From the NCBI GenBank assembly GCA_003175935.1, contig PSRI01000064.1:10831-74830 (forward strand): a stretch of 64,000 nt of DNA, written 5' to 3'. Both the position numbers and the translations under genes were made by a program. Below, piece after piece: positions 43,073-63,502 of this stretch. Source of the DNA: Bacteroidota bacterium (GTDB lineage: Bacteria > Bacteroidota > Bacteroidia > Chitinophagales > Chitinophagaceae). A model generated the notes under the pieces. The model saw only the letters and a list, made by a program, of their open reading frames with translations. It did not search any database and was not told the origin of the DNA. Every line of letters starts with the position of its first letter. Within the stretch, counting starts at the first letter, position 1.

Positions 43073-43148
43073 CTACTTCCCAATACAAAAAGTAATATCT
43101 AATGAAGGTAAGCGTGTTATGATTTTGAGGTACAAATTAGGTACAATT
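43073..43148 (-). repeat. decayed copy 1 of the mnmE 3' end (att-like)
   Basis: The minus strand reads ...LYLKIITRLPSLDITFCIGK-TAG. Compare the MnmE C-terminus [27 protein letters not shown]. It shares a ~75-bp alignment with copy 2 (CCAATACAAAAAGTAATA...GGTACAAAT.AGGTACAATT). Confidence 0.6.
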
Positions 43149-43389
43149 ATTACCTATTTTATCTTTCAATCTTGTCTAGGCAAACATTTTTAAACTTATC
43201 AAGTATAAGCTTTTCTTTCGTTTCAGGTTCCACTATTGAAAAAAAAGATAATGGACAAAGTTTGCAATTCATTTATTGACAACAGGACCAGTTATTTTGT
43301 TTTCCCTTTGTTTGAAATTGAAATATCTTTTTTGGCCTTTGAGAGCTTCTTCAATGTTCTATTTGCAAAGAGGTTAAATTTTTTTACTG

Positions 43390-43737
43390 CTATTTTCTCT
43401 TATCCAGAACAAAATAGCTGAAATAATTAGCCTCCACATTGAGATCAACATCGTCCTTATATATTTCACAAAGACTATAATATATTCGATGTATATCTGA
43501 CAATTCGAATTCCCTCAATATCCGAAGTGTTTTCGCCAGTTGCATGAACTCAAGCAATTTTGCAACGAGCAATGGATTAACCGGGTATTTTTTATTTGCT
43601 TCCACTAAACTTTTAAAAGTATCCTCTTCAGACAATTCTCCATTTGCAAACTTTTCCATGTTATCCCTAATATTTGACAGGACAAATTTGAATTTCGAAA
43701 TTTGGTTCGCTACTAAATCAATTTTTTTTATGCTCAT
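43390..43737 (-). CDS. hypothetical protein, putative orphan immunity protein
   Basis: 115-aa ORF, AT-rich. Its ATG overlaps (TAATG) the stop of an upstream start-less 48-codon reading frame. Confidence 0.6.
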   Translation of the reverse strand: MSIKKIDLVANQISKFKFVLSNIRDNMEKFANGELSEEDTFKSLVEANKKYPVNPLLVAKLLEFMQLAKTLRILREFELSDIHRIYYSLCEIYKDDVDLNVEANYFSYFVLDKRK

Positions 43738-43883
43738 TACCTATCTTTTTGTTTTTGCTTCTCCAAAAGTCGCTTGGCATTCTGATAAATTTTCTTCATG
43801 GGTCCGGCTGCTTTTGCAACCTTGTCAGTACCTTTTGCAAGTTCTTCTATTTCGGCTGGAGTTTTATTTTCTAACCCGTCACC
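43737..43883 (-). pseudogene. possible remnant of a toxin C-terminal tail (start-less 48-codon frame)
   Basis: The minus-strand frame reads GDGLENKTPAEIEELAKGTDKVAKAAGPMKKIYQNAKRLLEKQKQKDR-stop and is bounded upstream by a TGA. Neighbouring frames look like frameshifted continuations. The TAATG coupling to the next ORF mimics toxin-immunity junctions. Confidence 0.3.
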
Positions 43884-44014
43884 TCAATTTTTTTGCTTCT
43901 TCAACACCAGGGATCTAAATCATCTAGCGTTTTTTTCGATTGCACAGCTACAGCTGCCGGAGCTGAAGCATTTGAATAAATGGTAGCAATTCAAATGTAT
44001 CTGCTGACATCACC

Positions 44015-60250: not shown

Positions 60251-60274
60251 AGATGAATATGCAGTCAAATAATT

Positions 60275-61723
60275 TTAGAAATTATAACCCACCCTAAAAA
60301 TGAATGGATTGGTTCTGGGCACATGTCTCGTGGCTAAAAAATCGTAGAGTGCCTGCGCATTCCCTTTGAATTTTTTACCGAGACTGTATTTTTTACTAAA
60401 CCCCAGCAAAGCACTTTGCTGCCAGAGTGTATAGTTTTTGAAAATCTGCAAACTGGAAATACGTTTCATGTAATTCATTTCTGCACCTCCACTCAGCCAC
60501 CAGCCTCCTTTCACTTTCCAATCGATAAAAGATCGTAGACTTAATCCTTCTGCAGAAATGTGCATATGGTTCCAGTCTTTACCCCAACCCATCTTGTAAG
60601 AGCCACCAATGCCGATAATACTTTTCTGATTGATTTTATATCCTAGGGAAAAACCAAAATCAGAGGTCACAGGAAAATATCCATTCCCCCGGGATGATTG
60701 AAGGTTCATACCATATTCAAGCCTGTGCCAAAAAGATTTGGTCTTTTGCTGATTGGGCGTAAATGAAGGAGTATTCATCTCGCCATCTGAAGCACCCCCG
60801 AGTTGGTTAAGTTTACTCTTGAGTTGATTCAACTGATCCTTCGCCTGATCAAATTGCTGGTTGATCACTTGTTGTCCGTTAGGTCCGCCTGCCAATGCTC
60901 TTTGTTGAACGAGCTGTTGCACCTGTGTTCGCGTTTGAAGAGCAGGATTCACAGAGGCATTGGACCCTAATCCCGATGGAGCAAACAAAGAAGCAAGCAT
61001 GGAGTTTTTCGAAATGAAATCCTGAAATGCGGGAACATGATTTAAAACTTCAAGTAGTTTTTGTTCCACTTTGGATGGATCATTCAGAGTTTGTCTGAGC
61101 TCTTTTATCTGCTGACTATAATAGTAAACATCTTGCTGATATTTCCCGAAACACTTACTGATATTTTTGGGGAGGTTGGTGTATTTGGAAAGCAGGTTTT
61201 TAATTTGCTGTTGTCGTTCGAGTAATTGTATTTTGATGGCTTCTGTCTGATTGAGTTTATCTTTTAATTGTCGTACTTCCTCTAATGATTTGGCTATCCG
61301 ATCCTGCACTTCTTTACTTTCTGACAGTAGCGCTTTGCCTTGAGACAGGAATGATAACGATCCTTCTAAAGAATCCAAATATGGCATGTAGGGTCCAGAA
61401 AGAATCTTTGAAACTTTTTCTGACTTGGTATTCATCTTTGAAGCAAGCTTTTCATATCTGGCTGTAACATTTCCTAGAGCTTTTGCAGCCGAAGAATCAT
61501 ACTTTGAAATTTTGGAAGAAAGTTTTTGTTCCTGCCTGGATAAATTATTGAGGTATTGTGAGGTTTCGCAGGTAATCTTATGATCCAGCCCGGAAATTTT
61601 AGAATCAATTTGGTCAAAGTATTTCGAAGGAAGAGATGATAAATTCTGAAAACTGGAATCCTGCGCCCTGGTTAGTCCGTAAGCAAGGAGGCATAGCAAA
61701 AATAAAAAATAATACTTCTGCAA
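60275..61723 (-). CDS. outer-membrane protein: N-terminal coiled-coil region + C-terminal small beta-barrel (locus B)
   Basis: 482-aa ORF with signal peptide (M)QKYYFLFLLCLLAYGLTRAQ. It has ~300 aa of heptad-like Q/K/E/L-rich sequence. The C-terminal ~150 aa has alternating beta-strand patterns ending FIFRVGYNF. It lies 6 nt upstream of the SpvB-N-like gene stop-to-start junction region. Confidence 0.7.
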   Translation of the reverse strand: MQKYYFLFLLCLLAYGLTRAQDSSFQNLSSLPSKYFDQIDSKISGLDHKITCETSQYLNNLSRQEQKLSSKISKYDSSAAKALGNVTARYEKLASKMNTKSEKVSKILSGPYMPYLDSLEGSLSFLSQGKALLSESKEVQDRIAKSLEEVRQLKDKLNQTEAIKIQLLERQQQIKNLLSKYTNLPKNISKCFGKYQQDVYYYSQQIKELRQTLNDPSKVEQKLLEVLNHVPAFQDFISKNSMLASLFAPSGLGSNASVNPALQTRTQVQQLVQQRALAGGPNGQQVINQQFDQAKDQLNQLKSKLNQLGGASDGEMNTPSFTPNQQKTKSFWHRLEYGMNLQSSRGNGYFPVTSDFGFSLGYKINQKSIIGIGGSYKMGWGKDWNHMHISAEGLSLRSFIDWKVKGGWWLSGGAEMNYMKRISSLQIFKNYTLWQQSALLGFSKKYSLGKKFKGNAQALYDFLATRHVPRTNPFIFRVGYNF

Positions 61724-62101
61724 GGTTAGCGAGTTAGTTTGGTGTTAGTCAATCTTGGATCACAAAAATGTGGAATTGACGCAAATCAAAAAATATTTTT
61801 TTGTTAACGTAAAGGTTAACTCTTAACGTTTTCGTTTATACTATAACGTTAGTTTATTATAATCATTTTTAATTTTGTGATTTTAATAATATTCAATTCT
61901 CATTTCAATAATAAAATAGATTGAATAAATTTTATGAATTAAAATTTTTTTACACTTGTCTATCCTTATCTTTTCTAAATTCCAGTTCCATGAGATCTAT
62001 GATTTGGGACATATATCACAAAATTCTATTCTATTTCACAACTTCTTCAAGGGTTACGAAGAAAAAGATTTTTAAAATGGAATAAGAAGAAGGAAGGTGG
62101 G

Positions 62102-63502
62102 TTATTTCCCAATACAAAACTTACTAAATATGAAATCCAGCCGGTCTTCGTTTGTAATCTCACCTGTGATCTCTCCTAAATAATGCAAACACCTTCTGAT
62201 ATCAAGAGACAGGAGGTCCCCGGAGATCCGTGCATCCAGGCCCTTCCGTATGTCAGCCAATGATTTCGCTACCTCCTGGAGTGCAGCATAATGACGCGCA
62301 TTGGTAACAATAGTATGCTCAGTGTTAACCTGACCTTCGACCAAAACACCTGTGAGTTTGTCGCGCAATTCAGAAATATGACCGTGCTTTTTTGCTGAGA
62401 TAAAAATGATTTCTTCATTGTTGAATTTAGCTATGAGTTTTTTCTCTTCGCTTAAATCCATTTTGTTTCCGACGAGTATATAAGTCTGGTTAATGCCATC
62501 CATTTTGTTTATCTCTGCTTCTAAACCTTCTCTTGTTTCCTCATTAGCGTCGAACACATACATCACGATATCTGCAAGACGCATTTTCTCTAAACTCTTC
62601 TCCACACCTATTACTTCAATCTTATCACCACTGTCACGTATACCTGCAGTATCAATCAGTCGAAACAGAATTCCGTTGATGTTCAGAACTTCTTCAATGG
62701 TATCACGCGTAGTACCGGCAATTTCACTTACGATGGCCCTGTTTTCATTCAGCAAAGTATTCAGCAATGTACTTTTGCCGGCATTGGGCTTTCCTACGAT
62801 CGCTACATTTACGCCGTTCTTAATGACATTCCCTAACTTGAAAGAATCCATCAATTCCTGCGTGGAATTAGTGAGTTCTTCAATAAGTTGGTAGAATTCT
62901 TTTCTGTCAGCAAACTCCACATCTTCCGTTGCAAAATCCAGTTCCAGTTCTATAAGCGCTGAAAACCGAATCAGCTTTTCCCTGAGCTCATGAAGATTTT
63001 CAGAAAATCCTCCGCGAATATTTTTCAATGCAGTCTGGTGTGATGCCCGGGTATTGGAAGCAATTAAATCTGCAACAGCCTCTGCCTGCGTTAGATCAAG
63101 CTTTCCTTTCAAAAACGCTCGTTGGGTAAATTCTCCCGGCTTTGCAAGGCGGGCTCCCCTTTCAATCGTTGCATTGATAATTTGTTCCTGCACATAGGGT
63201 GAACCATGCGAAGAAATTTCCAACACGTCTTCGCCTGTGTATGACCGTGGGGAACGATATATGGATACAACCACTTCGTCGAGGGTTGTGATTCCATTTT
63301 TCAAAAGACCCACATGTAATGTATGAGTTGATTGTTTGGAGAGATCCTTTGAAGGGAACATCTCATTTACAATATCAAGTGCTTTTGCTCCGCTCAAACG
63401 AATCACTCCAATTGCGCCTATGCCTGGTGGTGTTGATAGGGCAACAATAGTATCATCCCAGCCTCCTAATTTTCCTAGCATTATGCAAAAATAAGGTTTC
63501 AC
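62102..63502 (-). CDS. mnmE: tRNA modification GTPase MnmE (TrmE)
   Basis: [22 protein letters not shown] N-terminus, G1 [12 protein letters not shown], G3 DTAGIR, G4 GNKMD and the invariant C-terminal FCIGK. The start may be the internal ATG at 63481. Confidence 0.95.
   Translation of the reverse strand: [466 protein letters not shown]

Follow-up and report, generated by a model that had tools for sequence, protein, structure and literature searches.

The mnmE gene and the repeats of its 3' end

The stretch of DNA analyzed here (64 kb, hereafter the window) comes from a soil Chitinophagaceae and contains the tRNA modification GTPase gene mnmE, followed downstream by an array of units lying between copies of the last 18 bp of this gene (positions 43073-62119 of the window). 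The gene is intact, with a protein of 459 amino acids (aa) that terminates in FCIGK-stop in translation; a longer GTG-started version in the mechanical list of open reading frames (ORFs) probably does not represent the real start. The window MnmE is 64-73% identical to MnmE proteins of Chitinophagaceae, such as Ferruginibacter and Lacibacter. The closest sequences reach at most 73% identity in species-representative genomes and 72% in a metagenome collection, all best matches being Chitinophagaceae, and an exact-protein look-up with two start choices returned no match. The gene and the four attachment (att) cores are the following:

62102-63481, minus strand: mnmE, tRNA modification GTPase, intact, 459 aa (Pfam TrmE_N, MMR_HSR1 and MnmE_helical, full length)
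62102-62119, minus strand: att core 0, the functional last 18 bp of mnmE (gene sense TTTTGTATTGGGAAATAA)
48879-48896, minus strand: att core 1 (TTTTGTATTGGGAAGTAG), with about 16 further nucleotides (nt) resembling the core-adjacent part of the other arms
47879-47896, minus strand: att core 2 (TTTTGTATTGGCAAATAA)
43073-43090, minus strand: att core 3, the outermost copy (TTTTGTATTGGGAAGTAG)

The pattern YTAYTTSCCAATACAAAA has exactly these four matches in the window, all on one strand, and none across 100 shuffles; with up to three mismatches allowed, the search still retrieves the four core sites only within the 64 kb. Each core encodes FCIGK-stop on the minus strand, and the variation between them is restricted to synonymous or stop codon changes (GGG/GGC, AAA/AAG, TAA/TAG). 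The inserted DNA is thus bounded by direct repeats that match the 3' end of the target gene and share one orientation. The C-terminal CIGK motif of MnmE is under coding constraint, which keeps the core near-invariant across phyla. An earlier sequence-only reading of this DNA had reported the mnmE end at three further same-strand sites, and the pattern search confirms both the coordinates and the FCIGK-stop coding. It had also raised the case of a generic dispersed repeat, to which the 64-kb search answers with four copies, all within 19 kb downstream of mnmE.

The mnmE end in related genomes

The comparison set comprised 160 Chitinophagaceae mnmE loci (L-numbers below) with up to 10 kb on each side of the gene, corresponding to 141 lineages at 99% mnmE nucleotide identity and drawn from scans of the species-representative genome collection and the metagenome collection. 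Upstream of mnmE, 92% of the locus pairs share a homologous ORF within 6 kb, versus 6% downstream. The small gene upstream of the window mnmE has homologues in 71 of the first 80 loci, and none of the window's downstream genes was found downstream of mnmE in any relative. Because gene content is conserved upstream and variable downstream, synteny breaks at the mnmE stop codon.

Directly after mnmE and co-directional with it, a tyrosine integrase is present in 30 loci (28 lineages), starting 563-690 nt past the mnmE stop in 27 of them. These mnmE-site integrases have the domains Arm-DNA-bind_5, Phage_int_SAM_5 and Phage_integrase and are preceded by a small HTH_17 Xis-like gene; in L005, the integrase is followed by a DUF6617 gene, a second HTH_17 gene, a DUF3987 primase-like gene and then the cargo. 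A perfect FCIGK-stop 18-mer occurs a second time in 14 loci (12 lineages), in every case downstream of mnmE and in the same orientation; none lies upstream or antisense in the 160 loci, where about 0.01 chance matches are expected by estimate. Altogether, the mnmE end is occupied in 39 of the 141 lineages, roughly a quarter. The element of L109 exemplifies the complete arrangement, with about 7 kb containing xis, int and cargo, the mnmE end on one side and a second core on the other.

These data bear on the idea that the copies are chance matches or a generic dispersed repeat unrelated to mnmE. The shortness of the shared core would fit such an origin, which is contradicted by the absence of matches in the 100 shuffles, by the restriction of the copies to four in the 64 kb, each in gene orientation and no more than 19 kb downstream of mnmE, and by the downstream, same-strand location of every extra copy in the 160 related loci. 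We therefore consider it extremely improbable.

Empty-site variants, a prediction of the sequence-only reading, are seen among the relatives; for the window organism itself, no close relative or alternative junction was found. L122 is empty, its mnmE core being followed by attgtgtctgcc...; L106, whose mnmE is 93% identical to that of L122 at the nucleotide level, carries an insert of 3.36 kb flanked by two cores, beyond which come 39 extra nt and the same flank as in L122; and L117 (mnmE 99.6% identical to L122) presents an integrase-bearing element instead. Moreover, the identity of the integrases is decoupled from that of their hosts: those of L025 and L145 are 99.7% identical with MnmE proteins at 66%, and those of L005 and L091 are 70% identical with MnmE proteins at 93%. 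Such decoupling between sequences indicates horizontal movement and independent occupation of one site. Judged from these genome comparisons, the mnmE end is a genuine family-wide att site in Chitinophagaceae.

The cargo located between or past the repeats in the relatives appears defense-related. A Fic protein was found in L027 by Pfam match, and identifications made by eye include HigB/HigA in L027, an AbiE-like nucleotidyltransferase pair in L015 (with a very weak Pfam hit), type I restriction-modification in L005 (from sequence motifs) and an IS200-like transposase beside a Fic-like ORF in L024. Some second copies extend beyond the core. In L059 (4235-4362 and 5557-5684), the second copy includes no less than 110 nt from the 3' coding part of mnmE, with only scattered differences, and could be either an element with a longer gene-end mimic or a local duplication. 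In L144 (11354-11420 and 12892-12960), the flank of the first core (GAGGCGAGCGTTAGCGAGCCGAAGTCATCCCGC...) is repeated after the second one, the duplication passing the stop codon. A GC-rich 'gtcatcccgc' string, similar to this flank, is located past the mnmE end in L111 and L112.

Arms beside the cores

Two of the window cores are bordered by related DNA. Around the copies at 43073 and 47879, a stretch of 80 nt is 80% identical (43070-43149 versus 47876-47955); the similarity of the copy at 48879 to these two is limited to about 34 nt. The alignment of the sequences next to the first two scores 53, shuffled sequences scoring 15 on average (p<0.0005). These correspond to two arms:

43091-43150, minus strand: P arm of unit E1, tandem TTGTACC (plus-strand GGTACAA at 43129 and 43140)
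47897-47956, minus strand: P arm of unit E3, tandem TTGTACC (plus-strand GGTACAA at 47935 and 47946)

Both present two TTGTACC motifs 11 nt apart, the nearer beginning 45 nt upstream of the core in gene sense. This layout recurs on the distal arm of the L109 element, where the motifs are found at 16286 and 16297 and the core at 16342; the proximal arm of L109 carries three more TTGTACC motifs, 124-190 nt past the mnmE stop. An arm sequence common to an intact element of the same group is therefore present twice in the window and on both arms in L109. The motif also occurs on the proximal arms of L142, L058 and L141 and on the distal arms of L015, L102 and L146, there at 44-46 nt from the core.

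The sequence-only reading had taken the extension of the copies at 43073 and 47879, to about 75 bp, for a decayed MnmE tail. Alignment against shuffles shows no such tail: compared with the mnmE 3' region, the arm DNA gives p = 0.55-1.0, with p = 0.98 and 1.0 for the ~60 nt beside these two cores, and their translated tails compared with MnmE give p = 0.08 and 0.18. The extension of about 60 nt has no resemblance to mnmE beyond the 18-nt core, and a gene tail is rejected in favor of the P arm of an element. Because the properties of the arms fit arm-type sites and their geometry is that of L109, the copies at 43073 and 47879 are, on sequence grounds, distal (attR-type) junctions of L109-type elements and not gene tails. 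The TTGTACC motifs are predicted arm-type sites, to which an integrase with an arm-binding domain would bind.

Other elements at the mnmE end have other arms. A second group (L004, L005, L011, L022, L025 and others) uses TTGTTGCC repeats in place of TTGTACC, at about +60 to +140 nt from the mnmE stop in the five loci named, and a third distal-arm type (...cactaatttctctgaaacccact...) is common to L027, L053, L111 and L144. This diversity suggests several integrase arm specificities, all apparently operating with one core. No attC-like hairpin was found in the arm-plus-core DNA on either strand, its folds having z-scores of -0.3 to +1.5 relative to shuffled sequences.

Units of the array

From mnmE outward, the array can be divided into four units, E4 to E1:

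48897-62101, minus strand: unit E4 (locus B), with the Rhs operon at 49.5-61.7 kb (ORFs; Pfam DUF6443)
60275-61723, minus strand: E4 coiled-coil protein (ORF)
56888-60268, minus strand: E4 1126-aa protein (ORF)
50041-56832, minus strand: E4 DUF6443/Rhs-type protein of 2263 aa (Pfam DUF6443)
49520-50038, minus strand: E4 small downstream ORF, possible immunity gene
47957-48878, minus strand: cargo of unit E3, a unit of about 1 kb, with a single 167-aa ORF (48234-48737) having a hydrophobic N-terminus and no family match
47233-47878, minus strand: unit E2, a 0.6-kb remnant, with a DUF4262 C-terminal fragment (47233-47751)
45322-47232, minus strand: orphan Rhs C-terminal module of unit E1 (Rhs_assc_core, then its own divergent C-terminal tip)
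44814-45287, 44463-44804 (DUF1493), 44015-44440 and 43390-43737, minus strand: four small AT-rich ORFs of unit E1 past the orphan Rhs tip (G + C content 0.33)

The four small E1 ORFs are candidate immunity or accessory genes. Between 43 and 50 kb, the G + C content is 0.30-0.35, versus about 0.41 for the whole window.

Unit E2 ends with a third arm motif (47243-47264; 0 of 22 mismatches to the degenerate pattern) that has no core, and homology to the main Rhs protein, from its residue 1606, begins 11 nt beyond this orphan motif. The junction at 47232-47243 is most simply read as a deletion that took away the remainder of an arm with its core, together with the proximal portion of a Rhs-bearing unit. 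A 739-aa mechanical ORF (45322-47541) combines the DUF4262 C-terminal fragment, the orphan arm motif and Rhs sequence in one frame, and this chimeric reading frame spans the deletion junction. Counting E2, the window preserves no fewer than four units bounded by att sites, of which three have P arms of the L109 type.

The orphan module could alternatively stem from Rhs-driven rearrangement, that is, C-terminal displacement or homologous recombination within one Rhs locus, with the mnmE-end copies duplicated passively. Indeed, the module has a tip of its own and is followed by small ORFs, and the spacing of the att copies at 43073 and 47879 (4806 nt) is close to the offset between the Rhs-homologous sequences (4833-4836 nt; 46133/50969). 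Yet the orphan and residues 1606-2047 of the main Rhs protein are only 55% identical in protein and 65% in nucleotide sequence, which speaks against a recent displacement, the two ~4.8-kb stretches have no other similarity, and this origin leaves unexplained both the arm match to an intact element elsewhere and the repeats in Rhs-less relatives. The orphan is also separated from the main rhs gene by 2.5 kb containing two att cores. Such a rearrangement appears very unlikely, and the near-equality of the two spacings is probably a coincidence. A tandem duplication of a ~4.8-kb unit was likewise rejected, only the 80-nt arm and the Rhs core being alike between both stretches. Since the 5' break of the orphan abuts an integrase arm motif, it points to a deletion in a tandem array rather than to C-terminal displacement; the orphan Rhs tip and the AT-rich DNA at 43-50 kb can be explained as debris of this array.

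No cognate int, xis or P' arm is located anywhere in the window, and tblastn searches of the window with the L005 and L109 proteins for remnants of int, xis or primase recover only a 55-aa integrase fragment described below. A cognate integrase and Xis stand beside the att site in 28 related lineages and in L109. Therefore, the window units are regarded as decayed remnants.

The lack of these genes could be read differently, the integrase-less P-arm-plus-core units never having been autonomous and having been inserted at the mnmE end by the integrase of a full-size element acting in trans, by analogy with integron cassettes or cis-mobilizable elements (CIMEs), as a gene-capture array for toxin, immunity and defense genes. 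Units of 0.6-6 kb with a core at one end, a P arm plus core at the other and no integrase or P' arm do recur (three times in the window and in L015, L102, L146 and L106), their cargo amounts to one or a few genes, as with the AbiE-like pair of L015 or HigBA and Fic in L027, and only P arms survive in the window. Nevertheless, no evidence was found that such units move, L015 and L102 looking vertically related; the arm-plus-core DNA has no hairpin potential (z-scores as above) and is not attC-like; and CIMEs are documented to arise when full elements lose int and xis by deletion (PMC5704250), the orphan arm at 47243 showing that deletions have taken place here. We regard units of this never-autonomous kind as distinctly unlikely and favor remnants of full elements.

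Rfam finds no tRNA, tmRNA or other RNA target at the junctions between 42 and 64 kb. The only ARAGORN call is a tRNA-His at 55122-55202 (minus strand), inside the 2263-aa Rhs-type ORF and with no Rfam RNA there at the gathering threshold; this call is probably a false positive. One 151-nt contig of the soil sequencing run X3 (2025) omits 147 nt of 45140-45288 and has 34 unrelated nt instead; with a fit of about 20 nt per side, it is probably spurious or a distant match.

Beyond the outermost core lies a second giant-toxin locus (21511-42979), encoding proteins of 3003 aa (DUF6443/Big_2), 2292 aa, 364 aa and 794 aa, distantly related to those of locus B (27-35% identity), with a divergent regulator next to the array:

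42320-42979, plus strand: LuxR-type response regulator, in the flank beyond the array (Pfam Response_reg and GerE)

This regulator probably belongs with the second giant-toxin locus (21.5-41.9 kb); such a regulator is paired with the operon in L170 as well, beside genes for conjugation.

The integrase fragment next to core 1

The distal end of E4 contains the remains of an integrase:

48942-49106, plus strand: C-terminal 55-aa tyrosine-recombinase remnant (...GHRNLRTTQHYAKILD...), with the catalytic-tyrosine motif HYAKILD, 45 nt from core 1

The sequence-only reading had noticed it at about 45 nt from the copy at 48879 and had linked it to the repeats. Its position is as described, and a role as the cognate recombinase does not stand in view of its clade, place and strand. 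The fragment is about 69% identical to a clade typified by P0110 that is widespread in Bacteroidota, versus 50-60% to the mnmE-site integrases, and no mnmE-adjacent integrase among the 160 related loci falls in its clade (identity over the compared region not exceeding 59%). The fragment lies on the strand opposite to mnmE, and its lost 5' portion would extend across the place now taken by the core. As a candidate for the cognate enzyme, it was rejected for its wrong clade, distal position, opposite orientation and truncation beside the core. The fragment is a casualty of a junction or a deletion and not the maker of the repeats.

Intact versions of this integrase had also been proposed as a target for searches. 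The best 120 database matches to the 55-aa fragment (P0001-P0120) are all short ORFs of 64-97 aa representing C-terminal remnants, several of them on megabase contigs, which may be a ranking artefact or may reflect recurrent truncated integrases at element junctions. In L083, L084 and L086 (from the loci L081-L086), such a remnant lies at the boundary between a prophage and the chromosome, about 350 nt downstream of the full-length integrase of that prophage. No mnmE-like core was found upstream of the remnant in two short-ORF matches that were examined.

The presence of a recombinase remnant next to small ORFs recalls the rAID-1 arrays, in which an intact 5' XerD-like recombinase is followed by at least two co-directional low-GC genes (10.1101/471110). 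An array of orphan immunity genes of this type, with repeats between them, would account for the G + C content of 0.30-0.35, the small ORFs, the toxin fragment, the recombinase remnant and the repeats. Against it, only 55 aa of the recombinase are left, encoded on the other strand than the small ORFs; the window repeats delimit multi-gene units instead of each ORF and correspond to the end of mnmE; and recombinases of the rAID-1 type have been reported from Bacteroidales only (10.1101/471110). The chances of such an array here seem negligible.

A proposed model of serial integration and decay

We conclude that the four copies are probably cores left by repeated tyrosine-integrase integration into the last 18 bp of mnmE, the older elements having then decayed. 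The proposal in the sequence-only reading of footprints of site-specific integration at the mnmE 3' end is upheld by the elements of relatives, the empty and occupied alleles, the synteny break and the arms. A circular element would carry an attP site in three parts: a P arm, in which two TTGTACC motifs are spaced 11 nt apart and the one closer to the core starts about 45 nt upstream of it; the 18-bp core encoding FCIGK-stop; and a P' arm containing more TTGTACC motifs. Beyond the P' arm would come a Xis-like gene and then an integrase whose N-terminal domain is of the arm-binding type. The crossover would occur within the core and leave a second core at the far end of the element; mnmE would stay intact because the element brings synonymous final codons, and the window gene is indeed still full length with all domains after integration. 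Later integrations at the mnmE-proximal site would shift the earlier units outward by accretion, and the elements would decay to integrase-less units that retain att sites, all window units being of the CIME kind, without P' arm, xis and int. In one deletion, a core and the first ~1600 codons of a Rhs gene would have been lost, leaving the orphan Rhs tip beside the orphan arm at 47243-47264. The expected empty site would read mnmE...TTTTGTATTGGGAA(A/G)TA(A/G) joined to the sequence left of 43073 (gene sense tttttttatttgattttaccgatcttcttacc...).

The first step of this model, core crossover with restoration of the gene end, is seen in the structures of relatives, and we infer decay and further integration from the layout of the window. 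Likewise, the comparisons above establish how the repeats are organized, that the arms are homologous to those of an intact element and that the site is active in relatives, the order of arrival being deduced; this order is not fixed because integration into other att sites of the array is also possible. That locus B is the most recent arrival is unproven and suggested by its position only. Its position similarly makes it plausible that the large Rhs operon (E4) arrived by integration at the mnmE end. From its sequence organization, the array consists of decayed tandem remnants without integrase, with Rhs toxin/immunity genes as cargo, and its mobility would probably depend on an integrase and Xis provided in trans.

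Several observations weigh against serial integration. With no cognate int, xis and P' arm in the window, no unit is demonstrably autonomous, now or before. All surviving arms in the window are P arms and none is a P' arm, a bias that random decay would not obviously give. The distal junction of E4 (48879) has no TTGTACC arm and abuts a truncated integrase of another clade, and the origin of this unit may differ. The closest homologue of the E4 operon (L167, 63% identity) is located among housekeeping genes and not at mnmE. Finally, no strain-level empty site or excision joint was found, the nearest relatives being 73% identical. The contigs of four soil sequencing runs (X1-X4), which hold the sequence, contain no joints between cores, bearing in mind that contigs drop rare forms; a loose end at 62100 in run X2 was rejected as another organism's mnmE (about 90% match over 42 nt).

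The same operon order as in E4 is found in other Chitinophagaceae at non-mnmE sites and next to genes for conjugation. In L170, the E4-homologous operon is adjacent to genes for a relaxase, coupling protein and primase, and a LuxR-type regulator occupies the equivalent position. Operons of the E4 type change location and are not tied to mnmE.

If confirmed, these results would provide a defined att site (core and arms) with matching integrases for soil bacteria with few genetic tools, a predictable place for toxin, immunity and defense cargo in Bacteroidota genomes, and a clear case of a C-terminal coding constraint creating a cross-phylum integration target.

Comparison with known systems

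The array shares single features with several systems that combine repeats, recombinases and toxin cargo. Integrons are characterized by attC hairpins, IntI and attI; the arm-plus-core DNA folds no better than shuffled sequences, and there is no IntI. The rAID-1 arrays have an intact and co-directional recombinase, where the window has only the opposite-strand remnant. Orphan rhs-CT modules, composed of an Rhs core, a distinct tip and small ORFs, are like the orphan in the window; those formed by C-terminal displacement, however, are expected directly downstream and with a highly similar core, whereas the window orphan is 55% identical and lies in another att-bounded unit.

NBU1 and NBU2 integrate at tRNA genes. 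Elements of the NBU1/NBU2/CTnDOT type resemble those of the relatives in having an arm-binding tyrosine integrase, a Xis-like helix-turn-helix protein, a primase/DUF3987 module and a 3'-end target. They differ in their target, which is here the protein-coding mnmE, not listed for any Bacteroidota element in PMC5704250, where a tRNA-Ser 3'-end site is tabulated for a Bacteroides fragilis element. The accretion model itself has three steps: integration, decay to an att-bearing integrase-less unit, and new integration at the att site of the gene end (PMC5704250). The streptococcal ICESt1/ICESt3 and tRNA-Lys tandems follow this same accretion/CIME model in a different phylum and with a different integrase lineage, one unit here being without a core.

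The 3' end of trmE/mnmE is the textbook integration site of the SGI1-type resistance islands of Gammaproteobacteria. SGI1, PGI1 and MGIVchHai6 integrate into the last 18 bp of the gene (PMC4958241, PMC5397566), tandem arrays at trmE are 'not a rare occurrence' (PMC7449626), and the published att repeats of the SGI1 group are TTCTGTATTGGGAAGTAA and TTCTGTATTGGCAAGTAA (PMC4958241). The likeness to these islands that the sequence-only reading had drawn is exact at the 18-bp level (PMC4958241, PMC5397566): SGI1, PGI1, AGI1 and MGIVchHai6 use the same 18-bp target, with imperfect 18-bp direct repeats and int and xis beside trmE, and the cores TTCTGTATTGGGAAGTAA and TTCTGTATTGGCAAGTAA also encode FCIGK-stop, with two to four synonymous or stop differences in 18 positions from the window cores (pairs compared by eye). 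In contrast, the hosts of SGI1 are Gammaproteobacteria, and that of the window is a soil Chitinophagaceae with its best MnmE matches in Ferruginibacter and Lacibacter. The mnmE-site integrases of its relatives, of the Arm-DNA-bind_5 and Phage_int_SAM_5 type, are set apart by domain architecture and arm motifs, and the cargo consists of Rhs toxin/immunity, restriction-modification and toxin-antitoxin genes instead of resistance integrons. No SGI1-type int or xis is present in the window, nor is there any sign of IncC helper dependence, no targeted search for backbone genes or AcaCD sites having been made. Therefore, considering the differences in host phylum, integrase domain architecture, arm motifs and cargo, the window array is not a member of the SGI1 family.

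Full-text literature searches retrieved no paper linking mnmE/trmE integration with Bacteroidota or Bacteroidetes, an absence that is no proof of an undescribed system. As a tentative and somewhat unlikely extension, the mnmE end could be a gene-capture platform in which P-arm-plus-core units are stacked, and perhaps shuffled, in trans in an integron-like manner, an integrase lineage seemingly unrelated to that of SGI1 having converged on the same 18 bp, kept near-invariant by the CIGK constraint. Our comparisons show that the 18 bp targeted by the SGI1-type islands also function as an active att site in a phylum far from their hosts, where the integrases are of the Bacteroidota type and have arm motifs of their own.

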